Shown: in pieces, positions 4,966 to 58,296 of the stretch | Layout: each line of letters opens with the position of its first letter | Numbering within the stretch: position 1 is the first letter of the stretch | DNA from: a virus | Virus record (IMG/VR): IMGVR_UViG_3300044941_000276 | Coordinates: 32,001 to 96,000 of that record | Reading direction: 5' to 3' (one strand) | DNA length: 64,000 bases | Position numbers and translations under genes: made by a program | The notes under the pieces: generated by a model | What the model saw: only the letters and a program-made list of their open reading frames with translations | What the model was told of the DNA's origin: nothing | The model's database searches: none

Positions 4966-7900
4966 TTAATGTAAATTAACCCATCCTGAATTGGTATAAC
5001 CTTGAAATTTGTTATCTGTAGTGTTGTAAATCATCATTCCAATATCAGTTGTAGCGTTCCAAGCCACAGCATTTCTTTCGGCAGTTGTAAGACGTGGTAA
5101 TTGGAAACCGCGATTAGTTGAATTTACTTCTAGTTGTGCACGCGGATTAATACTTGTAATATTACCAACTATTATTCGCGGTATTGATAAAAAACCATTA
5201 GTTCCAAACTCCAACCATCCATTATCGTATAATTGCATTAATAATGTACCAGCTGAATTTTCCAATCTTTGTGTGATTGTACCTTGTGTTGCACCGAAAC
5301 CCCGAATAAAAACGCGAACACCTGATAATGTCAATGTTGTACCAAAACTAAATCGGCCATCGTTGCTAATGGCTTGTCTTATAATGTTGTTAGTTTTAAA
5401 CATTAAGGCCGTGTTCTCAATAGAGCCAATAATTATGCTTGTGGTTGGGCCAAAATTGTTACCGTTTTGTAAGATTGCATTAGTTATATTAAAAGTAGTC
5501 AATGTAGCTGATAGGTTACCGCTAGAATCAGCAACAACAATACGATTACCTGATCCTGCAAGATTGGCTATATTAACACCTCCGCCTGAATTTATTGTAA
5601 TTCGTGGAGTGTTATTGGTTTCTATAATTACAGGATGGTTATCATTGCTTCCGATTGTTATAGTTGTACCAAAACTGTTACCGTTTTGCAGAATAGAATT
5701 TGTTATGTTAGTTATACTTGTAACATCTATCGTAGCAGACAAATCACCGCTATCATTAGCTACAACAACTCTATTGCCAACTCCTGAAAGATTTCCAACA
5801 TTAACGTTACCACCAGAACCCACTGTAAAACGCGGAATATTGTTAGTTTTAATGATTACAGATTGTGAATCATTAGAACCAATAACTACATTGGTTCCGA
5901 AACTATTTCCATTTTGAAGTATAACTTGGTTAAGATCAACAGTGGTGTTGATGCTCATTGAGTTGTTAGTGTCATCGTAACTGACTGTAACTCCACTATG
6001 ACTACCAGCGGCAAATAATTGTCCAACAATGTCTTGTATAAACTCTGCGTCAACAGGAATTTGGGTATTTTCAATTAATATCTCGCCCGATATATCGTTA
6101 TAAGTTACACTGATACCTGTACCTGCTGTTAATGAAGCGCCTACAACATCTTGAACGGCTTCTTCAAAGTCTGTTATATCGTTGGATACGTGAGTATGGT
6201 TAATATCGGCTTTATTATTCAAAGCAGGTTGTAAACCTACTATATCAGATATACCGTGGGTGTGTATTGTTAATTGAGAATTTGGTAATCTTCCTGATGA
6301 ATCAAGACTTGCATAACCATTGGGTTGTCCTTTTTGGGATGTCAACTGATAATTAGATAACAAATTAATCAAGTCAAGTTGATTAATTATGTTACCGTTT
6401 ATCTGACCCCATACAGCATTAGGGGCTGTTAGTGTAGTAGTCGTAACGCCTGTTACTATACCTCTATCATTTACAGTGATAACAGGAATAAGTGTAGAGC
6501 TACCATAAGTTCCAGGTGTTACGGTAGATATAGGTAAATCATTATTTACAAGTGCTCTAAATAAAGGTTGATTTGAAGGTGGACTTATAGGGCCAGCAAA
6601 TACAGTGTTAGGTGTTTGATTACCAAATGTAGGTGTTACAACAGCAAATTGTCCATCTCCTCTTAAAAATGTATTGGGTTGAGGATTAACACCTAATCTT
6701 GCTACATTGATTATACCTGTGGTTATATGACTACCATCATGATTGTGAACAGGTATGTCACTTGAAGATAAAAATGTACCTGTTACAATTCTACCTTTAC
6801 TGTCTACCGATACTTTTGTATAAGTACCTGCTGTAACCCCTGTGGGTTGTAATACCGCATCGATTTGATTTAATGTATCGTTGTATCTAAATTCAATTTC
6901 TGATGAATCGATTAATGCGTTGCCCACTGCATCTTGCGCAGCTTCTGTAAAGTCGGTTACTTGAGAAGCGTTTATTGTTGCTGCTGCCCAATTAATATTA
7001 ACCAATCCTACATTAACTACTCTTCCTTTTACGTCGGTAGTGATAACAGGTATGGTCGATCCATCGCCATATGTACCTAAGGTTCCAACATTTGTAAGAT
7101 CTGCTAATATTTGATTAGTTACAGGATTCCAAGTTAAAGCTATGTTAGATGTATTTCCAACACTTGTAGATAAAACGTTCCTGACACCAGTTACAAAATC
7201 AGCTATCTGTGCTGTAACAATATTAATATTAACATTACTCGCAGCTGTTAATCTACCTTGTGAGTTCACTGTAAAAGTTGGTATGGTTGATTGACTTCCA
7301 TAAGTACCACTTGTTACAGGCGTATTGGGTATTTCAATTGTTGTTAATCCGCTGGGGTCATCATAACTTATATTTAAAGTTGTTGAATTTAAAGATGTTC
7401 CAATAATATCTTGTACATCTTCAATGAAGTTAGGATTACCTGTTATAGATGTAGTGGTTATAGACGTTACTCTACCATATTGATCTATTGTTATGATTGG
7501 AAAGTTAGAACTATTACCATAAGTGCCAGCTGTTGTCAATGTAGGCAAATCTATCGTTCCACCGGTTACATCCAATGTACTCGATGTGATAATAGTTGGA
7601 AAATTATTGGTTATGTATGATACTAGATCACCAACTTGACTTGCTGATATCTGTATTGGTTGCGATGTTACATTTGTAACTCTACCTCTATCATCAGTGG
7701 TTATCGTTAATGTTTGATCAACATCTCCCACAGTGGTTGCTGTACCAATAACTGGTAATGAAAAAGTAAGCGATGTGGTATTATCAGTAATAGTTATACT
7801 ACCATCACTCAATAACCGATTGAACAGTTGAGGTACAAGGGTATCACCAAAGTCAGTTGATTGTAAAAAGTTAAATAATTTTAATGGTGTTACAGCTGCA

Positions 7901-48900: not shown

Positions 48901-49214
48901 TTATCATATAGTTATCATATAGATATTATCAAAATTTTGTGAGTTTTATAAAATACTATACATCTCACAAATGAGCGGTCACAAAAAATAGGGTCACAAA
49001 AAATTGTGAAATCGAAAAAGTCAAAAAATTGCTTAATCAGATATATGAGAGTAACAAAAAATGACAAAAAAAATTCAAAAAAGAACCGTCTTATAGCTTT
49101 AAGGGTATACTCGAGTAGGTCAATTTTTGGTCAAAAAACGATTGATGAGCTATATAAAAGTAAACTTTTCTCTTTTTTTCTACTCACAAAAAATTGTGAG
49201 AAAAATGTGAGATG
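48901..49214. repeat. Iteron-like direct/inverted repeats at the strand switch
   Basis: TTATCATATAG x2 (48901-22); GGTCACAAAAAAT x2 (48977, 48992); CTCACAAAAAATTGTGAG (49183); inverted TTTTGTGAG (48935) and ATGTGAGATG (49205). Confidence 0.65.
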
Positions 49215-49356
49215 GGTTCTCTAATGTTGTTTAAAGTACATCAAACGAATTTTTTTATTTTTTTATTTTTTTATTTTTTGTTTTTTGTTGAGGGAATATT
49301 TGGTCTGTACCCCCATCCTGCCCCGCTTGGGTTTGCAACTAAACACCATAAATTAT

Positions 49357-49647
49357 ATGAAATCTTACGAATTTGAATCCGGTGCTGAGTTCACCGGAGG
49401 CTCGCTCTTAGGGCGTATTGAAGTACAAGTTGAAACCTCGACGAAAGGGTCAGGTCTTAACAAAGGCAAGTGGCGCAATACTATAAAGCCGGTTGAAGTA
49501 ATCCTCACAAATAAGAAGACTGGGAAGAAAACGGCGTCTATCCGTGAGGCGTTCAATTCAAAGACTAAATTGGACGCCGGCACCTACACAGTAGGTGTCT
49601 ATGAAGCGGACATCAACAACAAATTGACAGCCTACCTGGCTTTGTAA
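49357..49647 (+). CDS. Hypothetical early protein
   Basis: ATG at 49357 after an A/T-rich leader; first gene after the strand switch. Confidence 0.65.
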   Translation: MKSYEFESGAEFTGGSLLGRIEVQVETSTKGSGLNKGKWRNTIKPVEVILTNKKTGKKTASIREAFNSKTKLDAGTYTVGVYEADINNKLTAYLAL

Positions 49648-49998
49648 GTCGGGTAGGTCCCCCTTCGGGGGTAAGTGTGCCTCAATCATTAGCCACATGA
49701 TGAGAGGCACAACCATACACTCGCCACACGGTGTATGGTAAGTAGCAAGTGTGGGCATATTTTCATTGTCTTGGTTGAAAATATGCTTCCCCAGATATCT
49801 GGGAGTGGGTTTTTTTAAAAAATCCAAGACATCCACCCCTCAGTCCGAGTGAGGGAGAGTGTGACCAAGTTGTTGTAACCATCCGACAACTTGGCACACG
49901 AGGTGGATTATGTAGGCAAATTGAAGACGCCTAATCTCGGAACGGGGTAAGCCGAAAACTCATAAAAAGAGTAGGCGTAAATTGAAAACGACTAGTTT
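49648..49998 (+). ncRNA. Structured non-coding segment 1 (hairpins + 3 pseudoknots)
   Basis: Consecutive stems; loop/downstream pairings ccacac/gtgtgg, tgtcttgg/ccaagaca and tccgag/ctcgga. Confidence 0.6.
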
Positions 49999-50256
49999 AT
50001 GACCAGGACTATCATATCGGAGGTGAACACAGCTCACCTTCATATGATCAAAGAAAGATTTGATCATGAGTACCCGCTACCAAACGGAGGGTACGTACTA
50101 TATTCGTTTTGCTCGTCGACATCAAAAGATATTGAAGCTTTAATCATTGTAGTAAAGAAAGAAAAGCTCATCAAATCGAGAGCTTTTCTTTTCACGGGGG
50201 AGGTTCTCCAATTGGAAAATTTCCTCGCTAAACATGGGATTGAAATATCCCTTTAG
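49999..50256 (+). CDS. Hypothetical protein
   Basis: 85-aa ORF. Confidence 0.55.
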   Translation: MTRTIISEVNTAHLHMIKERFDHEYPLPNGGYVLYSFCSSTSKDIEALIIVVKKEKLIKSRAFLFTGEVLQLENFLAKHGIEISL

Positions 50257-50905
50257 CGAGGTCTCCCCTTTTTTCCCCTTGCTGCCATTTAATGGGTAAA
50301 ACGGCAAGGGGGTTTTAAAGCCCTGTCAGGCGAAATTGAAGATGACAGGGCATCTTTCTCCCTACCTTGGGTAAGTAGGGAGATATTTTATACCCATCGT
50401 CGAGAGAGGATTCGACCCGTGTAAGCGAAGTGCTCTGGCCGGTCGCAGCACGGGTTGTTATCCATTTTTTACTCCTCACCTTGAGCAAGTGAGGGTGGGT
50501 GTTTGCTCACGTCCCTCAATCGGACTGCAAATGTAACGTCGTTATTTGATGGTTACTCAAGCCGGTTCGATGAGGGACACTTATTTGACTAAGACGGGGT
50601 CAGATAAGTAAAAATTAAACCGTCTCTGCCGAAAAGCTCGCGACGCGTTTTGCTCGCTGAGCATTGGCAGATTCCCCGAAAGGGGAAATTAGCGCCCCTT
50701 AAGTGGGGCTTTAGCTTGTCCGTACCATACCGGACTTAAACATAGTATGGTAAGCCTTTGTACTAGGCTTTGATTGAGGGGTAAAACCCAAGAGAAGGTA
50801 CAAAGACCGTCACCTAGCATCGCTTTTTATGGCTTTAATCATGCTATAGGTAGAATCAGAAGACGGCGCGCACAGGGTTCTTTATGAGCTTCTTACCTGT
50901 GCAAA
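50257..50905 (+). ncRNA. Structured non-coding segment 2 (at least 4 pseudoknots, one AATTGAAGA hairpin)
   Basis: No ORF over about 650 nt; almost continuous inverted repeats; see findings. Confidence 0.65.
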
Positions 50906-50912
50906 ATAAGTT

Positions 50913-50986
50913 ACTCCCATAGCTCAACTGGATAGAGCAACTGCCTTCTAAGCAGTAGGTTGCAAGTTCGAATCTTGCTAGGGGTA
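50913..50986 (+). tRNA. tRNA-Arg(TCT)
   Basis: ACTCCCA-TAGCTCAACTGGATAGAGCA-ACTGC-cttctaa-GCAGT...GCAAG-TTCGAAT-CTTGC-TAGGGGT-A; one acceptor mismatch, no encoded CCA. Confidence 0.9.
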
Positions 50987-51028
50987 CGATTAAAAAACCT
51001 AATCACAATTAAAAAAACAAAAAACGTT

Positions 51029-51445
51029 ATGAACAAGAACACATTCGTTTTTGTGATCACCATGTTGGTGGTCACAATCTTTTTGGCTGCCGCTGCGGTA
51101 GCCAAGCCCCGCCCGAAATGGGTGCGGGTTAGCCACTCTATCTTATCAACCGTTGACCGTATCGACCGAGATACGGTTGCAATTAAGCTCACCTTCGTCC
51201 GCTTTGACGGCGAAGGTCGTCCTACTATTGGTCAAAATTTGGGTCACTTTATTATAGAAGTGGCCTTCACAGTCGACCGCTCAGAGGCGGTACGCATTTT
51301 AAACGGCGGGCAGTTGTCCGCCAACGGGCATGTCCTCGCCCGTATAAGCGAGGGCACCAAAATAATTCGTGACCCTGAGGGTCGCGAAATCCGCCGTATG
51401 AAAGCGGCGGATATCTGCAAGATCCTTTATGGGTCTTCAGAGTAA
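51029..51445 (+). CDS. Exported protein with signal peptide
   Basis: ATG 51029, MNKNTFVFVITMLVVTIFLAAAAVA; the longer ORF call overlaps the tRNA. Confidence 0.7.
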   Translation: MNKNTFVFVITMLVVTIFLAAAAVAKPRPKWVRVSHSILSTVDRIDRDTVAIKLTFVRFDGEGRPTIGQNLGHFIIEVAFTVDRSEAVRILNGGQLSANGHVLARISEGTKIIRDPEGREIRRMKAADICKILYGSSE

Positions 51446-51450
51446 AAAAG

Positions 51451-51485
51451 ACAAGGCGGTTTCTATGAAATCGCCTTGTTTTTTA
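51451..51485 (+). terminator. Intrinsic terminator
   Basis: ACAAGGCGGTTTC-tat-GAAATCGCCTTGT-TTTTTT. Confidence 0.8.
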
Positions 51486-52582
51486 TCAGGGTGAGAATCC
51501 CTGACAAGCCTGTGGGGCTCATGTCTTGCTAAGGCATTGTTGCACTTGTATAGGGGAAGAGTAGTAAAGTCGAGTAATATTGCTGCGTTAGGTAATACTA
51601 TAAGCATTATGAAAGAGGAATATCTATTTTGACTATATGGCGCAATGTCTGATCAAGCATTAGTGCGGACTCAAAAATCAGGCAGTGGTACAGCCTTAAT
51701 CTGTACAAATCTTTGTTTATCAAAGATTAACAAGGAAATAACCAATACCTTGTCCTAACTATGGGTAAAATAGTAGTCGTCCTTTTTTTAAATGTATTTT
51801 TTAAACCTGTACTATCGTCCCCGGATAGTACATCAATAGTGGCACAAGGAGGCCGCGAGGGGCGAAGACATATGGTCTTCAATGTTTAACAAATCGTGGT
51901 ATTGAGCTAGACCACGTTGAAATAGTTAGCTCGCCTGTCCACAAACACGGAGGTGTGACAGGTTCATGGGAGAAGAAGAGGCCGTCAATATTAAACGACG
52001 TGTCTCTAAAGAGAAAAGGGTTTCCGTGTTGCGACTGAATCTCATGTCGCACAAGTTAACGACTTGACCCGAGATATATGTAGCTCTATACATTAACAAT
52101 AACTACGTCAACAATAGATGTAGGGAGTGGTGTATATCTATATATGTACGATTTGAGACTGGACAACTCAAATCAATATGTACAATGTCCAATAGCCGTA
52201 CGCCACAACGGCTATGATATCTTAAGATATAGGTCGATATTAAAAGACCTTATCTTAGATATAATTATTTTAGTCAAGGGCATGAATCGGGGTTGACATC
52301 CCGATAAGGGTATGGAGTAAAGACCATACTTGAAAACGTCAGCGTCCGATAATCAAATCAACAATAGATTTGAGGAGGACGTTAAGGCGAATTGAAGTCG
52401 CCGTCATTTTTCTATCCTGTACGGATAGTTGTCAAAGTCGACCATGGGACTAAGACGTAAAAACAGAAAGAAGCCTAAGTCGTGCGATGCTTCGCATCGA
52501 TATGGTGAGCGCTCATGGTTATAGTAGGAGACTACGACAATGTCGTATGTCGTTATTACTACTGAATAAGTCCGAAAGGACT
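51486..52582 (+). ncRNA. Large structured non-coding segment 3 (about 1.1 kb)
   Basis: No ORF of 60 aa or more; dense hairpins; at least 4 pseudoknots; ends at the hammerhead. Confidence 0.65.
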
Positions 52583-52638
52583 CTGTCGTCTATGTGCGTG
52601 GCTGTGCATAGGCCTGATGAGGGGTTAACCCGAAACAG
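52583..52638 (+). ncRNA. Type III hammerhead ribozyme
   Basis: CTGTC|GTCTATGTGC-gtggct-GTGCATAGGC-CTGATGA-GGG-gttaa-CCC-GAAACAG: full CUGAUGA/GAAA core, stems I-III, GUC cleavage site after 52587. Confidence 0.85.
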
Positions 52639-52728
52639 TATTGCCCGCGTAAAATAAGACTGCGTTAAGGTCTTGTGAGTGATGCGTGCCCACTCAGAAC
52701 GGCATTAATTTTTTATCCAAAATTGAAG

Positions 52729-53853
52729 ATGGATAGAAAATTAATTAACGCCCTAGAATGCGAAAAGTATATACAGAAAAAACTTTTCGCGTTCAACGCC
52801 GGCAAGACGCTGGCTAGGGCGTGGAACGCGGGGGAAAATTGTCTTCTTACCGGACCTGGTGGGTACGGTAAGACGGACGGAGCTGCTTTGTTCTTTGAGT
52901 ATCTCAAAGAACAAGGGGCTTTGTCTGACGAACGTCCATACGTATTGGCGTTCGGACAGGGCATGACTGAGGAAAGGTTATTCGCTGGGTTGGATATCAA
53001 ACGCTTTCAGAATGAAGGCGAATTGGTGTACAACCTGAAGAAGGCCTTCGTATCCTTCGAATATGTAATATTCGAGGAAATGTTCGACGCATTTCCTGGG
53101 GTATTGCTTATTCTGAAGGATGTTCTTCAGTCTAAGAGCGTACGGTTAGGCGACACCGTATTTCCCTTGCGAACTAAATTTATAGTCGCCTGTACCAACC
53201 GTAGCAATGAGGAAGTCGCTACGGATAGAAGTACATGGGCTCTTTTAGAAAGATTCGTCTTTCAAAAAGAGGTAACCTGGACTTCGTGGGAAAAGTCCGA
53301 CTACCTCTCGGCTTTCGAGGCAGCCACAGGCCAGAAAGCTGATTCCGTAATGGAGGCTGTGGCAAGAATAGCTGCTGCCAGCAGCAAAGGTGAGATGAAG
53401 ATCTCGCCTCGTACTGCTGGTAAAGGTCTTAAGGCAGTAAAACAAAACGGTAACGACATTACCGTTTTGGAAGACATTCTCGGCTTCGATAAGAAGTCGG
53501 TAAGAGAAGTCTTCACTGCTATGGAAGGCATAGCAGCAGACAAGGCTCAACGTGACCACGTAGCTGCGGTGGTCGCGTTATGTAAGCAGACAGCAGCTAC
53601 TTCTTCGAATTCCGCCATTAAATTGGCGGTTGCCGCTAAACGAGTTCACGTAGAACTCGAAAAACTTAGTGGAATTCAACGTCGTGATGCGAACGTTGAA
53701 TTGTTCGAGGAAAGCATCATTGTCATAGAGAATCTGAGGGAGTCTCTATGGCAAAGAGCCAAGTCCCTTATTAACAAGCCACCAGTTGGCAGCTTGGCAG
53801 AGTTTATACAAAACTCTAGCACAAGCTCATTCGACTGGAGCTTGTTGAGATAA
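52729..53853 (+). CDS. MoxR/RavA-like AAA+ ATPase
   Basis: GPGGYGKT Walker A, YVIFEE Walker B, ACTN sensor 1, ALLERF, ISPR; likely ATG 52729. Confidence 0.85.
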   Translation: MDRKLINALECEKYIQKKLFAFNAGKTLARAWNAGENCLLTGPGGYGKTDGAALFFEYLKEQGALSDERPYVLAFGQGMTEERLFAGLDIKRFQNEGELVYNLKKAFVSFEYVIFEEMFDAFPGVLLILKDVLQSKSVRLGDTVFPLRTKFIVACTNRSNEEVATDRSTWALLERFVFQKEVTWTSWEKSDYLSAFEAATGQKADSVMEAVARIAAASSKGEMKISPRTAGKGLKAVKQNGNDITVLEDILGFDKKSVREVFTAMEGIAADKAQRDHVAAVVALCKQTAATSSNSAIKLAVAAKRVHVELEKLSGIQRRDANVELFEESIIVIENLRESLWQRAKSLINKPPVGSLAEFIQNSSTSSFDWSLLR

Positions 53854-53931
53854 TCGTTAACCCAATCTCTTGGGTTTGACTTGCATATAAGGTTAATCGT
53901 AAAAGCAAGGTAGTTATAATTTTATGGGGTT

Positions 53932-55161
53932 ATGAAAAAAAGAACCATACCCCACCATCTGTACGTTGAGCCTACGCGGCGAGACGTACAAGAAAGATTT
54001 AAGGAGTTAGGTTTTGATAAAACCTACTCTTATGATCTCGTACGGGATATTGCTAATGCGATGTCTCACGTACAGAATGGTGGGAAAGTCACTGACGCAA
54101 TGACCAACGTCAGTGATTGGGTTCTTCCTTCTGACTATAAGTCAGAGAGGGAATATCAAAGAGCACTCTCGTATCACGAGAATGTTCAAAGATTTATTTC
54201 TTCTCTTGACTTTGACAAGTTCAGTGGCAATACTCCGCTTGCAAAAGCGGCAAGTGTTGTAGCTGCACTGTCTAGTCAAGAAGGGGGACAAGGCGAGGAG
54301 GGTGATGGTCAACCCTTGCCAATCTTCCGAGGTTCGTCAGAATCTATGGAAGAAAAGGCTAAAAAGTTGGAAGAGGCAGTTGATCAAACTGTCGAGGCCA
54401 ATAAAAGCCTTGCGAGGTACATCATCAATCCTGATGAGGCCTCCCCAGAGGTGGCTCTCGCGACCTTGAACAGCGAGAATCGGGACCTCTTAGCCAAGTT
54501 AGCGCTACTTGGTGACAGGGGTAAGATACGTTCACAGCGCACTTCTCCCACAAACAAACTCACTCAAATGAGTGAGTATTCACAGGTGGGTCGTGTGAAT
54601 AATATGAGTAGTATGTTTCTCCCAACTTTCGGGTATAAATTTGCGACCAAGCAATTGGTTGTGAAAGAACCCGAACAATCAACGAGACAAACCCTTGTCT
54701 TATTGATTGACAACAGCGGTTCTATGGACGAGACCGACAAATTAAGTTGGGTCAAAGCCATAGTAGTTAACAGATTAGACGCTGTTAGTAAGGGAGAAGC
54801 TGAGTTGTATATCGGTTGGTTTGAATGTTCTCTTGATGAAGAGAACATTGTTAAAATTGCCAACAAAAAAGAAGCCATAGCTTTTTTACAAGAAGGCTTC
54901 TTGGGTAATTTTAACGGGGGAAAAACTGATATACAACGGGCCATTGAACAAGTTTGCGAGGGAATCAAACTTGGAAGGCTCGGTAATTATTCCCTCAACG
55001 GAGTTAAGCCTCAAATCGTTGTAATGAACGATGGGCAAGACTTTGTTGATAGCAATTATAAACCCAGTGTTGTGACTCACGGGTTTATCTTAGGGCGTGA
55101 CAATGACGGAATGAAGTCAATGATCGCCAATTGCGGAGGTCACTATGAGAGATTTTTATAA
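53932..55161 (+). CDS. VWA-domain protein
   Basis: LIDNSGSM MIDAS, GGKTD, NDGQD; adjacent to MoxR ATPase. Confidence 0.85.
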   Translation: MKKRTIPHHLYVEPTRRDVQERFKELGFDKTYSYDLVRDIANAMSHVQNGGKVTDAMTNVSDWVLPSDYKSEREYQRALSYHENVQRFISSLDFDKFSGNTPLAKAASVVAALSSQEGGQGEEGDGQPLPIFRGSSESMEEKAKKLEEAVDQTVEANKSLARYIINPDEASPEVALATLNSENRDLLAKLALLGDRGKIRSQRTSPTNKLTQMSEYSQVGRVNNMSSMFLPTFGYKFATKQLVVKEPEQSTRQTLVLLIDNSGSMDETDKLSWVKAIVVNRLDAVSKGEAELYIGWFECSLDEENIVKIANKKEAIAFLQEGFLGNFNGGKTDIQRAIEQVCEGIKLGRLGNYSLNGVKPQIVVMNDGQDFVDSNYKPSVVTHGFILGRDNDGMKSMIANCGGHYERFL

Positions 55162-55368
55162 TCTTTCTTTTCCCTATGCTCTACTAATAGGGATGTAAAA
55201 CGATAGTAGCTGGAAGAAAACTACCCTACCTCAGGGTTATGTGACTATAAGGGTTAATGGGTGCGCTACCATTAGAAATGTCACGCATATAAAAATCCTG
55301 CCATTGCAGGTTGAAGCACAAAACCTTACCCAGTTTTGTGTGTATATAACTCATGGGTAATAAAAGAC

Positions 55369-55614
55369 ATGGATAACTTTTTTCTTGAGTTATTTATTAT
55401 AACTCAACAAGAAAGAATTCAATCCGAGGGATTATTTTCTATCCTTTGCCGAATTGAAGAAGGCAAGGATATGAAGAAAATCCCTTTCCATTCTCAAAAA
55501 GAGATGGAAGATTTCCTCTGGTTAAACAGAGGGAATTATCTATTCATCTCTTTGGAAGAGGCTGGGCTATTAGTGTCCACCTCTCCATTTGAGAATGGAT
55601 TGGGAGTGAATTGA
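55369..55614 (+). CDS. Hypothetical protein (start 55369 or 55471)
   Basis: In-frame ATGs; the 55471 ATG directly follows an AATTGAAGA hairpin. Confidence 0.4.
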   Translation: MDNFFLELFIITQQERIQSEGLFSILCRIEEGKDMKKIPFHSQKEMEDFLWLNRGNYLFISLEEAGLLVSTSPFENGLGVN

Positions 55615-55798
55615 TTGGGGACCACCTGCACTAATCATCGGTGGGATATAAATAGAGGATTTTTTCTAACCATTCCATTTTGTAATATTACAAATAAAGG
55701 TTGAATCTGCGACAGGCATAGGGATATGTGCGAGTAATAGCAGAAGAGGAAGCCGAAAAGCTAAGTGAGTAGGCAATAACTATCCAAAAAATTGAAGA

Positions 55799-56116
55799 AT
55801 GGATATGATCAAGTTTTTATTTCCTCAGGTAGCCAAGTCTACCTTTGGAAAAAAGATGTTTAATCGCATAGCTCCTATCGTAGAAAGACTATGCGATGAA
55901 ACATCGATGATCGCAATGCCCTCAATCGCGATGTTTCTTACTTACCATCCCGGAGCTTCTGCTCCGCAGCAGATGGTATTTAATTATCTTGCAGAAGTCG
56001 CACTGCAAGGCAACTGGAGAGTATTTGTTGCGACGTATGGGGAACTCATTTCTCCTTCTGACCCATTGGCTGTATTGGGTCAAGACGGAAGAAAACAGTT
56101 CTTCCGACCAATGTGA
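55799..56116 (+). CDS. Hypothetical protein
   Basis: 105 aa; start codon at the loop/3-prime-arm junction of an AATTGAAGA hairpin. Confidence 0.6.
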   Translation: MDMIKFLFPQVAKSTFGKKMFNRIAPIVERLCDETSMIAMPSIAMFLTYHPGASAPQQMVFNYLAEVALQGNWRVFVATYGELISPSDPLAVLGQDGRKQFFRPM

Positions 56117-56463
56117 AGCTTTACGTCCTTAACTCTGCGGTAATGCCAGAAGATGGTTATTATCGCAGAGTTAAGATAAGTAGAGAGAAGGCTTCCGAGA
56201 TACTCAATACAGCCACAGAAATTGTATCTTCTGTTGGGTATCCGGAAGTTTGTCAAATATTACATGAAATATCAGGAGTTGTTGTTCCTCTTGATATTGA
56301 AAAGCGAGTAACAACATTTACTGAAGACGAGTGTACTATATTAGTATGTAAACTTGTCTTCAGGGAAAAAGCAGAACGAAAAGGAGTTAATCGTCATACC
56401 GACATTAACGAATATGAGTTCTGCTTAGTTCATTATAAAAAAAATAACCCTTTTATCAAATAA
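56113..56463 (+). CDS. DUF1874 / AcrIII-1 ring-nuclease family homolog
   Basis: LYVLNSAVMP..IS.E.A..L..IVSSVGYPEVCQIL..GVVVP..R..ILVCKL.FR matches the STIV B116/YddF layout; GY where GH is expected. Confidence 0.6.
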   Translation: MKLYVLNSAVMPEDGYYRRVKISREKASEILNTATEIVSSVGYPEVCQILHEISGVVVPLDIEKRVTTFTEDECTILVCKLVFREKAERKGVNRHTDINEYEFCLVHYKKNNPFIK

Positions 56464-56484
56464 ATAATAAAAGGGTTATTTTTT
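56440..56484 (+). terminator. Intrinsic terminator
   Basis: AAAAAATAACCCTTTTAT...ATAAAAGGGTTATTTTTT. Confidence 0.65.
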
Positions 56485-56517
56485 AATTCATTCAAATCAT
56501 AATCGTTTATCATTCAT

Positions 56518-56712
56518 ATGGAATTATATCCTATAGTAGAATGTTCAACAAAAGAAGGAGCGTCGCTTATTGTTTCTTTCTTTTGTGAAAAAGGTTTTGA
56601 CTTCTACTTTGTATTTACAGGTAATAAGAAACCTTATCTTGTAGTTACAAATAAGGAAGGTCTAAAAGCTTTTGAGCAATGGAATCATTCATTAGCAACA
56701 ATTGTTCATTAG
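56518..56712 (+). CDS. Small hypothetical protein
   Basis: 64-aa ORF. Confidence 0.5.
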   Translation: MELYPIVECSTKEGASLIVSFFCEKGFDFYFVFTGNKKPYLVVTNKEGLKAFEQWNHSLATIVH

Positions 56713-56765
56713 CAGGTTTCATTAACAACTTATTCACTTTTCATTAGCAATTTTCATTAGCAATT
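56688..56765 (+). repeat. Five TTCATTA(G/A)CA direct repeats
   Basis: Copies at 56688, 56705, 56718, 56740 and 56753. Confidence 0.75.
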
Positions 56766-56978
56766 ATGTATCAAGTCACAAAAAATATAAACGGAGTCTA
56801 TGCTGAGGCTACGTTTAAAACAAGAGAAGAGGCCTTGCGCCAAGCCACACGTTGGTTCGATTCCATGAACACTGATATTTCAGATTTATGCGGATCGTTC
56901 ATTAGCCGTATTGTTAGCGGTAAGAATATAACTTATAGATTTCAAAAAGCATCCTTAACAATAAGACATGAAAAATGA
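56766..56978 (+). CDS. Small hypothetical protein
   Basis: 70-aa ORF. Confidence 0.55.
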   Translation: MYQVTKNINGVYAEATFKTREEALRQATRWFDSMNTDISDLCGSFISRIVSGKNITYRFQKASLTIRHEK

Positions 56979-57198
56979 AATCTATGGGTCTTTTTCGTCA
57001 ATGACATTGACGGAAGAGGGAAAGTTGATTATAAATTTTCTATCGGACAATAACGAAAAGTTTATTGTTGAAATAGAATCTTTAATAAAAGAAGATGGTA
57101 GCGGAAGAAAATTTTTAATTAATCATAAACATGTAAACTCTATTAGCGGCTATGTTGACTTTGCTACTAATAAAGGTTACATAAAAATTAAAAATTAA
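56968..57198 (+). CDS. Small hypothetical protein
   Basis: 76-aa ORF. Confidence 0.55.
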   Translation: MKNEIYGSFSSMTLTEEGKLIINFLSDNNEKFIVEIESLIKEDGSGRKFLINHKHVNSISGYVDFATNKGYIKIKN

Positions 57199-57328
57199 AT
57201 TTTTACTTTTGTTGTTATTATAACAGCAAAGGTTTATTTGCGAACTCTTAACTCAATAAGTTAAACTAATTGACTTATAAAGAGTTACAAGTTCGTCTTG
57301 TAGAGCTCACCATCAAAAATCAGATTTT

Positions 57329-57469
57329 AGAGGTGGCGCTGGATGCGCCTTGGATGCTGGCAGGCGCGCGACTGTGCAACATCGGTACTGGCAAGAAGCT
57401 GAACGACGGTTCAGTGGATGTTAGCAAAGGGCTGCTCCCTTGAGGCCGGTTCGATTCCGGCCACCTCTA
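57329..57469 (+). ncRNA. Expanded tRNA-like RNA (about 140 nt)
   Basis: AGAGGTG/CACCTCT acceptor, perfect GCCGG-TTCGATT-CCGGC T arm, enlarged middle with no 7-nt anticodon loop. Confidence 0.7.
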
Positions 57470-57483
57470 CTTAAACAAACAAA

Positions 57484-57557
57484 GGGTCCATAGCTCAGCC
57501 GGTTAGAGCATCTGACTCATAATCAGGGGGTCGCAAGTTCGAGCCCTGCTGGACCCA
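57484..57557 (+). tRNA. tRNA with CAT anticodon (Ile2 or elongator Met)
   Basis: GGGTCCA/TGGACCC acceptor, TAGCTCAGCCGGTTAGAGC, TCTGA-ctcataa-TCAGG; T stem has one mismatch. Confidence 0.88.
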
Positions 57558-57598
57558 CAATCGTTCATTCACAAAAACCGCGACTGAGGTATCAGCAA

Positions 57599-57844
57599 AT
57601 GGATGAAAGTTCCTTTACAATTATGTATATGATAACGGTAGAAGTTTATGATTGTGAAAAAGGCACTAATCGCTATGCGATAAAAGCTGCCAACTTCGAA
57701 GAAGCTGTTGAAAGATATGAAGATATCAAATCACGCATCACCGTAAACTGGACTCGCCATCCAGCAATCACCGAAGAAATTAAACACCTCGATTGTACAT
57801 ACGATTCTTTTAATGAAGGTTGTATAATCATGTCTCGTGTTTAA
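57599..57844 (+). CDS. Small hypothetical protein
   Basis: 81-aa ORF; start may be a downstream ATG. Confidence 0.5.
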   Translation: MDESSFTIMYMITVEVYDCEKGTNRYAIKAANFEEAVERYEDIKSRITVNWTRHPAITEEIKHLDCTYDSFNEGCIIMSRV

Positions 57845-57852
57845 AAATATTA

Positions 57853-57955
57853 CCATCTATCGTCTAAGTAAGACGATTTGACAATCGCTTATAACAAAAA
57901 TTGAAGATTATAAGCAATTGTTAAATAAATACAGGTTCGTATCCTGTTAGATGGT
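57853..57955 (+). ncRNA. tRNA-like RNA whose anticodon arm is a 19-bp stem with a CAAAAATTGAAGA loop
   Basis: CCATCTA/TAGATGG acceptor; TC; GTCT-aagta-AGAC D arm; long arm; AAAT; ACAGG-TTCGTAT-CCTGT T arm. Confidence 0.75.
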
Positions 57956-58074: not shown

Positions 58075-58296
58075 ATGAAAGTTTACGTTCATAGGTACCA
58101 ATTTGAAGGAGTATTAATCGAATTAATATTGCCTCATAACAAGCCTATTGAAGTTGGTGATGCGATTTCAATTGAAGAAATTGAAATTGAACCAATAAGA
58201 ATAGAGCACGCAATCTTAGATGCGGTTGTCGTATATTTTTCTTATAGAAGCAAAGAAAGAAGTGTAATCGTTGACAAATCAAATCTTGAAAAGTAA
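58075..58296 (+). CDS. Small hypothetical protein
   Basis: 73-aa ORF. Confidence 0.55.
   Translation: MKVYVHRYQFEGVLIELILPHNKPIEVGDAISIEEIEIEPIRIEHAILDAVVVYFSYRSKERSVIVDKSNLEK

Follow-up and report, generated by a model that had tools for sequence, protein, structure and literature searches.

The stretch of viral DNA analysed here (the window, 64,000 nucleotides) comprises bases 32001–96000 of IMG/VR record IMGVR_UViG_3300044941_000276, a single linear contig of 105,641 bp with 32.5% G+C that is ~71% complete according to CheckV. It carries a family of plus-strand hairpins with differing stems and a common loop word, AAAUUGAAGA, and this hairpin probably serves as an RNA signal, not described before, for a putative factor that reads it. 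The portal and large terminase of the contig match crAss-type families, the terminase being 26–30% identical to Crassvirales terminases, and by these matches the virus is a distant crAss-like phage, whose DNA is present in hot-spring and microbial-mat metagenomes (ten DNA runs). Genes up to 48.9 kb, including structural genes, lie on the minus strand, and plus-strand genes begin at ~49.36 kb. The stretch from 49.6 to 55.2 kb has few open reading frames (ORFs) and many hairpins, together with a Hatchet ribozyme, two DUF805b-type elements, tRNA-Arg and tRNA-Met, and its G+C content is 41–46% compared with 31–33% in the remaining window. This island (49648–55161; genome 32.5%) spans the hairpin-dense non-coding stretch as well as a pair of genes encoding a MoxR-type AAA+ ATPase and a vWA protein, and it was possibly acquired as a module. 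Past the window end, at 65401–67918 in window coordinates, there is a second MoxR-vWA pair.

All seven plus-strand hairpins listed in the original prediction were found where it had placed them, and an eighth, variant hairpin (h2) was added (Table 1). The loops are 7–14 nt long with the consensus AAAU-W-R-AAG-R. All eight window copies read ATTGAA(G/A), and the gap between ATTGAAG and the 3' arm is 0–2 nt; on its 5' side the loop is more variable (by 0–6 nt). The stems had been described as unrelated, which holds in part: h5 and h7 both have TATCCA/TGGATA and h1, h2 and h4 all have (T)AGGCG, so that ~5 independent stems remain. When the flanks were aligned on the motif, no common word, boxA-type or other, was found beyond (T)AGGC in a subset. 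The h5 hairpin still forms in a 201-nt fold, and h1 and h7, which combine short stems with 11–13-nt loops, have predicted folding energies between −4 and −5 kcal/mol at 37 °C (z ~−1.5). Among Rfam 15 families, the hairpins were overlapped by noise-level matches only (Rota_CRE at 16 bits, miRNA models), and the Rfam matches to Hatchet, DUF805b and tRNA are separate neighbouring elements. A ninth candidate at 58163–58189 was dropped, as its motif folds into a stem. Finally, h3 comes after a terminator-like hairpin, and the ATG at its loop/arm junction opens a 10-codon frame only; a role as leader-peptide attenuator was rejected, since both the frame and the terminator-like hairpin after it are absent in the close relative L001.

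Table 1 Features of the hairpin region of the window, with MoxR hairpins and Hatchet ribozymes of relatives
Feature	Position	Strand	Description
h1	49913..49933	+	5 bp, TAGGC / loop AAATTGAAGAC / GCCTA; non-coding, 8 nt ahead of DUF805b element
DUF805b RNA element	49942..49977	+	between h1 and h2
h2 (variant)	49972..49994	+	TAGGCGT / loop AAATTGAAA / ACGACTA; 7 bp with one G.A mismatch
h3	50320..50351	+	9-bp GC-rich stem, loop GGCGAAATTGAAGA; −16.7 kcal/mol, z −4.5
Hatchet self-cleaving ribozyme	51482..51683	+	70.3 bits, threshold 51
h4	52386..52402	+	5 bp, GGCGA / 7-nt loop ATTGAAG / TCGCC; non-coding, then T-run
Candidate type III hammerhead core	52583..52638	+	CUGUC / stem I / CUGAUGA / stem II / GAAAC AG
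h5	52704..52745	+	16-bp stem with one T.G, loop AAATTGAAGA; z −5.8
MoxR-type AAA+ ATPase gene	52729..53853	+	start codon inside h5
vWA gene	53932–55161	+	follows MoxR gene
h6	55441..55470	+	loop GAATTGAAGAA; 7 bp, or 9 bp with bulge; within 81-aa ORF 55369–55614
Weaker DUF805b-type copy	55743–55775	+	just 5' of h7
h7	55781..55805	+	6 bp, TATCCA / loop AAAAATTGAAGAA / TGGATA; 5 nt past DUF805b-like element
tRNA-like cloverleaf	57852..57955	+	long anticodon arm 57877–57925 capped by h8
h8	57887..57915	+	8 bp, loop CAAAAATTGAAGA; extends to ~18 bp over 57877–57925
MoxR hairpin, L082/L084, L085/L094			5' arm TCTCATA, loop aaatagaagac, 3' arm TATGAGA
MoxR hairpin, L086			5' arm TCCATAA, loop aaatagaagaa, 3' arm TTATGGA
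MoxR hairpin, L088			5' arm TCCATAA, loop aaatagaagac, 3' arm TTATGGA
MoxR hairpin, L087, L089–L091			5' arm ending TATACA, loop aaattaaaggta, 3' arm TGTATA
Hatchets of relatives	L094:7872–7945, L088:1397–1471, L086:4289–4363, L082:1329–1402, L085:2226–2299		above Rfam threshold

An enrichment of ATTGAAG in loops across the contig, which the original prediction required, was borne out by an 8-mer census and by Markov simulation. In the census, which took all perfect hairpins in the 105.6-kb contig, ATTGAAGA ranked first among 36,978 8-mers for loop position, with 7 of its 11 copies in loops (binomial p = 1e-6). With one fixed hairpin definition, nine motif-in-loop hairpins were counted on the plus strand and two on the minus strand, compared with an expectation of 2.02 ± 1.37 (maximum 6) from 200 Markov simulations, and eight of the nine plus-strand hairpins fall in 49.9–58.2 kb. 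The listed hairpins point with transcription and lie in the first 8 kb of the rightward block; that they are plus-strand and early had been noted before. The hairpin family exists and is strand- and region-specific.

The close relative L001 is 96–97% identical across most of the region but only 81–83% over 49.94–51.48 kb. L001 is without the Hatchet segment and has one extra ORF. Its h1 has gained two pairs, giving a 7-bp stem, and h3, although within the divergent block, has kept its stem and ATTGAAGA; its loop differs on the 5' side, and through an insertion of 4 nt the stem extends to 13 bp, one T.G pair included. An A-to-G change adds a second T.G pair to h5, a G-to-A change creates a C.A mismatch in h6, and the 3' arm of h2 is lost with GTAAATTGAAAA kept.

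For more distant comparisons, metagenome loci were chosen from an alignment of MoxR homologues and covariation was judged by inspection; MAFFT aligns the loop but scatters the stems over different columns, so no single consensus structure resulted. The comparative set consists of ~7 lineages, and the closest MoxR homologues, P0002–P0005 (59–77% identity), stand outside it. In five lineages with a MoxR 41–54% identical to that of the window, the MoxR start codon lies in the 3' arm of a 6–11-bp hairpin, a count covering every lineage in this identity range that has the MoxR N-terminus on its contig, with L083 as the exception. Hairpins orthologous to h5 occur in L082, L085, L086, L088, L089 and L094. 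The first codons of MoxR vary (M-R, M-E, M-D, M-Y) and the 5' arm shifts in step with them; this tracking is stem covariation at an orthologous site. The loops of the relatives are lineage-specific near-copies of the motif, AAATAGAAGAC or AAATTAAAGG, with the loop word ATAGAAG in L082–L094 and ATTAAAG in L089. Second copies with the lineage's own loop were found at L086:7812, L094:11867 and L088:169, the first of these being where an 81-aa ORF begins that is a homologue of window ORF 55369–55614. Across all its copies each genome has one loop variant, which points to co-evolution with a lineage-specific reader.

Other searches returned little beyond these lineages. The motif was not above background in 80 IMG/VR loci of MoxR-bearing phages at 24–43% identity, and the scan of IMG/VR by MoxR alignment gave one 96% relative only, in addition to the 24–43% homologues without the motif. 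A scan of IMG/VR for GAGTAGGC..AAATTGAAR returned the 96% relative and chance matches only, and one for CATAAAATAGAAGACTATG gave two matches, of which that in L310 lies in coding sequence. Scanning genome contigs yielded homologues at ≤39% identity only, and a literature search on the motif strings returned siRNA noise only.

The loop variants bear on the earlier suggestion that the motif mimics the 5' handle of a CRISPR RNA (AUUGAAAC/G type). ATTGAA is similar to the 3' terminus conserved among many CRISPR repeats, but the motif sits in the loop, whereas the 8-nt handle tag lies 3' of the repeat stem, the following G or A is unlike the handle, and the relatives keep the hairpin while carrying ATAGAAG or ATTAAAG. 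The suggestion is thus scarcely credible. Alternatively, the partner of the loop might be no protein but the loop of another RNA, for instance a small phage RNA or the anticodon loop of a tRNA, in a kissing interaction. UAGAAG of the relatives is the exact complement of C32–A37 of tRNA-Arg(UCU), so that their loop AAAUAGAAGAC could form 6 pairs with CUUCUA in the anticodon loop of the window tRNA-Arg(TCT), and a single GUCUUCAAU complement lies in the non-coding island at 51875–51883. Yet the window loop, UUGAAG, has one mismatch to its own tRNA-Arg, no tRNA was found in the relatives' loci examined, and complements in the relatives are not positionally conserved and are compatible with chance, making such pairing very improbable. 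As a complementary partner RNA, the GUCUUCAAU site and the one TCUUCUAU in L085 were both rejected as chance occurrences at non-conserved positions.

Several of the hairpins coincide with start codons. As originally described, ATG 52729 of moxR (h5) and ATG 55799 of a 105-aa ORF (h7) straddle the loop and 3' arm, and h2 ends 4 nt ahead of ATG 49999, which opens an 85-aa ORF. A third ATG, at 55471, had been taken for a start directly following a hairpin, but it is an internal methionine of the 81-aa ORF at 55369–55614, which is collinear with its L086 homologue, and h6 is therefore intragenic. Neither h1, h4, h6 nor h8 is at a start codon. Between GAAG and the ATG there are 0, 1, 3, 4 or 11 nt, and the motif is therefore neither a fixed-register start context nor a substitute for a Shine-Dalgarno sequence. 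Most plus-strand gene starts have an A-rich leader with no Shine-Dalgarno sequence and no hairpin, and hence the hairpin element is gene-specific. A-rich leaders devoid of Shine-Dalgarno sequences are expected for a Bacteroidota-type host, and judging by the gene starts, the host appears to use no Shine-Dalgarno pairing.

The surroundings of the hairpins are rich in structured RNA. The Hatchet ribozyme of the window has a large insert, and in five loci from four lineages a Hatchet above the Rfam threshold lies 30–31 nt 5' of the MoxR hairpin, with no T-run or terminator in the interval between them. The Hatchet cleavage site is the ribozyme's own 5' end, and the MoxR message would thus be a read-through product carrying first the ribozyme and then the hairpin. 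In the window, the hammerhead-like core lies 65 nt 5' of h5, and both its 10-bp stem I and its GGG/CCC stem II fold; in L001, a U.G pair in stem I has become U-A by a G-to-A change. It scores 16.5 bits only in Rfam, to Hammerhead_II, and is a candidate hammerhead ribozyme. Further downstream, the minimum free energy (MFE) fold of 57852–57955 is a cloverleaf of −35.1 kcal/mol (z −7.0; none of 200 shuffled sequences equalled it), although neither ARAGORN nor Rfam called a tRNA there. The predicted cloverleaf agrees with the earlier view that one hairpin is displayed on a tRNA mimic, h8 being its anticodon arm, and a C-to-U change in the D arm in L001 retains pairing as G.U.

Wobble pairs offer a view on which strand is folded. 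Plus-strand G.U or T.G pairs occur in h5 (one; two in L001), h6, L001 h3, the outer stem of h8 and the D arm of the cloverleaf. The tally of ~6 G.U to 2 C.A favours the plus strand; this is suggestive, though not significant. The hairpins are placed on the transcript on account of the Hatchet upstream, the hammerhead-like core, the position of h8 in the cloverleaf, the wobble pairs and the intragenic h6. The element is conserved with stem covariation, lineage-specific loop variants and an RNA context.

DUF805b is a bacterial cis-regulatory motif whose function is not known. Each DUF805b-type element is followed immediately by a hairpin or word of the motif and precedes an ATG by ~22–24 nt, and in L001 the DUF805b-type copies are at 6991–7027 and 7623–7661.

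The same observations weigh on a reading of the hairpins as promoters, by analogy with phage N4. The inverted repeats would extrude or form on single-stranded DNA, the loop would be the initiation site of a crAss-type virion RNA polymerase, and mRNAs would begin a few bases ahead of the ATG. In line with this, gp66 of phage phi14:2, the one crAss-like virion polymerase studied, accepts only single-stranded DNA as its template in vitro, and an early promoter motif for this enzyme was not found (10.1101/2020.03.07.982082). The phage is, by terminase and portal, distantly crAss-like and has giant virion-type ORFs, and promoters would be expected to share one orientation and cluster early, as the hairpins do within the initial 8 kb of the rightward block. 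In addition, the ATG comes 0–4 nt past the motif in many copies, h3 comes after a terminator, and h1 is close to where the non-coding island begins, with a 96-aa ORF (49357–49647) ahead of it, however. However, N4 promoter hairpins have 5–7-bp stems and 3-nt loops, and loops of 7–14 nt on 5–6-bp stems would extrude poorly. Moreover, h6 is intragenic and h8 belongs to a folded RNA as one of its arms, the plus-strand wobbles turn into A.C mismatches on the template strand, and the ribozyme 30 nt upstream without a terminator in five relatives argues for a MoxR message made by read-through. Nor is there a recognisable RNA polymerase sequence in the giant ORFs, as the 1881-aa and 3041-aa ORFs gave no such match in PDB sequences, PHROGs, Pfam or Atlas. 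The N4-like option of the original prediction is weakened by these loops, copies and ribozymes and has become less likely; initiation in the loop is now an unlikely explanation. The fuller proposal, that the hairpins are early promoters of a crAss-type virion RNA polymerase giving near-leaderless mRNAs, with the loop variant as the promoter specificity of each lineage, is decidedly doubtful. If true, such hairpin promoters would be important in view of the missing gp66 promoter motif.

The structured surroundings might also be taken to indicate programmed cleavage, in which a loop-specific endoribonuclease of phage or host, RegB-like or anticodon-nuclease-like, would cut in the AAAUUGAAGA loop. 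The cut could inactivate early messages, or free the AUG to give a near-leaderless mRNA, as part of heavy processing of early transcripts. The region is a processing hub (Hatchet, hammerhead-like core, two tRNAs, tRNA-like RNA), cleavage would cover copies both at and off start codons, including the anticodon-like arm loop, and lineage-specific loop variants would suit the specificity of an enzyme. On the other hand, no nuclease gene was identified, and computationally cleavage cannot be distinguished from simple binding. Cleavage is a rather unlikely explanation.

Among the options of the original prediction, a loop-read RNA element with a translational role fits best, given the covarying start-codon hairpins, the plus-strand wobbles, the tRNA-like display and the ribozymes just upstream, whereas the boxB-like antitermination named alongside it has no specific support. 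There is about an even chance that the hairpins are sense-strand RNA elements of early transcripts, with a loop read in trans and a translational effect at starts, which is the simplest account to take in every copy. From the sequence patterns we infer that a protein would read the loop and that the outcome would be translational control. In this reading, a trans-acting factor would recognise the single-stranded loop, and the stem would only have to pair. At MoxR, the 105-aa ORF and the orthologues in the relatives, where the start codon lies in the 3' arm or at the loop-arm junction, binding of the factor would stabilise or open the hairpin and so set translation in a host apparently without Shine-Dalgarno pairing. 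Copies off start codons (h1, h4, h6 and, above all, h8 on the tRNA-like RNA) would be bound by this factor as well and might act as decoys or reservoirs.

Several points weigh against such a loop-read translational element. The lineages compared are few (~7), come from a single syntenic MoxR-vWA module and share the MoxR, vWA and B116-like genes, and hence are not fully independent. L083 (43% identity) has a plain A-rich leader and no hairpin, and half of the hairpin copies lie away from start codons. Two plus-strand C.A mismatches, in the h8 extension and in L001 h6, would be wobbles on the other strand. Short stems of the h1 and h7 type would, going by their predicted energies, be unstable alone at hot-spring temperature. 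Pfam was blank on the small early ORFs and gave no reader candidate. As a separate observation, a gene resembling STIV B116 (PF08960), of nucleic-acid-binding type, lies at 56113–56463, and in L082, L086, L088 and L094 it is the only gene of this type that stays together with the hairpins in one module; its product is a candidate, possible reader of the loop.

Comparison with known systems brings out both familiar and unfamiliar traits. The coat operators of RNA phages (MS2, Qbeta, PP7) likewise have a start codon in the 3' arm, recognition of loop bases and a largely free stem, and here a start codon within the hairpin was found for h5, h7 and the MoxR orthologues, though not for h1, h4, h6 and h8. 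However, coat operators occur at one site per genome, with a 4–6-nt loop, a bulged purine and the coat protein as reader, whereas the present double-stranded DNA phage has at least eight sites with 7–14-nt loops and no conserved bulge. The hairpins and sponges of CsrA/RsmA also combine a constant loop word with variable stems, overlap start regions and include possible non-coding RNA decoys, yet their GGA loop triplet is not in the consensus AAAT-W-R-AAG-R, and CsrA is a host regulator, whereas the loop variant here differs per phage lineage. Similarly, boxB of the lambda nut sites shares the early region, the sense orientation and a loop end of GAAGA or GAAAA, which are boxB pentaloops, as well as a first copy near the start of the early non-coding island. 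It differs in its 5-bp stem, 5-nt GNRA-like loop, adjoining boxA and two sites, as the hairpins described here have 7–14-nt loops, no conserved flanking box and many copies on start codons.

The early promoters of N4 are comparable as early-region inverted repeats with variable stems in a phage that, here too, probably injects its own polymerase. They have 3-nt loops and lie upstream of transcription units on the template strand, unlike the present 7–14-nt loops, with wobbles on the non-template strand and copies in an ORF and a tRNA-like RNA. RegB sites of T4 (GGAG) resemble the motif as a short purine-rich word in start regions of early messages through which a phage-specified factor switches early expression, but the RegB target is the Shine-Dalgarno sequence itself, whereas no such sequence is present here and cleavage is only hypothetical. 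Little is known on early-gene control in crAss-like phages and in phages of Shine-Dalgarno-poor hosts, and a compact, mutable and lineage-conserved hairpin signal offers a concrete experimental handle. Furthermore, Hatchet, a ribozyme whose biological role is not known, is here tied to a defined downstream element, with a constant 30–31-nt spacing ahead of the MoxR-vWA module.

Other features of the region were noted in passing. In the divergent region at 48979–49203 the repeat (T)CACAAAAAAT(T/A)G occurs five times or more, in part as inverted pairs, within a 28% G+C gap separating the leftward from the rightward gene block, and a T-rich run follows at 49247–49290; the repeat cluster is a candidate operator or origin cluster. 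A word common to some of the hairpin loops and these iterons, AAAAATTG, was dismissed as coincidence, having no counterpart in L094. Immediately upstream of tRNA-Met, 57329–57472 matches the tmRNA model weakly (19.9 bits, E 7.7e-5 with 9.8 kb searched) and may represent a tRNA-like domain, and L001 has an additional weak tRNA call ~240 nt upstream of its tRNA-Met. Lastly, a 1691-aa plus-strand ORF in L162 (G000:C1:5235-10310) contains polynucleotide-kinase-like (phrog_505) and metalloprotease-like segments, and it deserves mention because 5'-OH ends are what ribozymes leave on cleavage.

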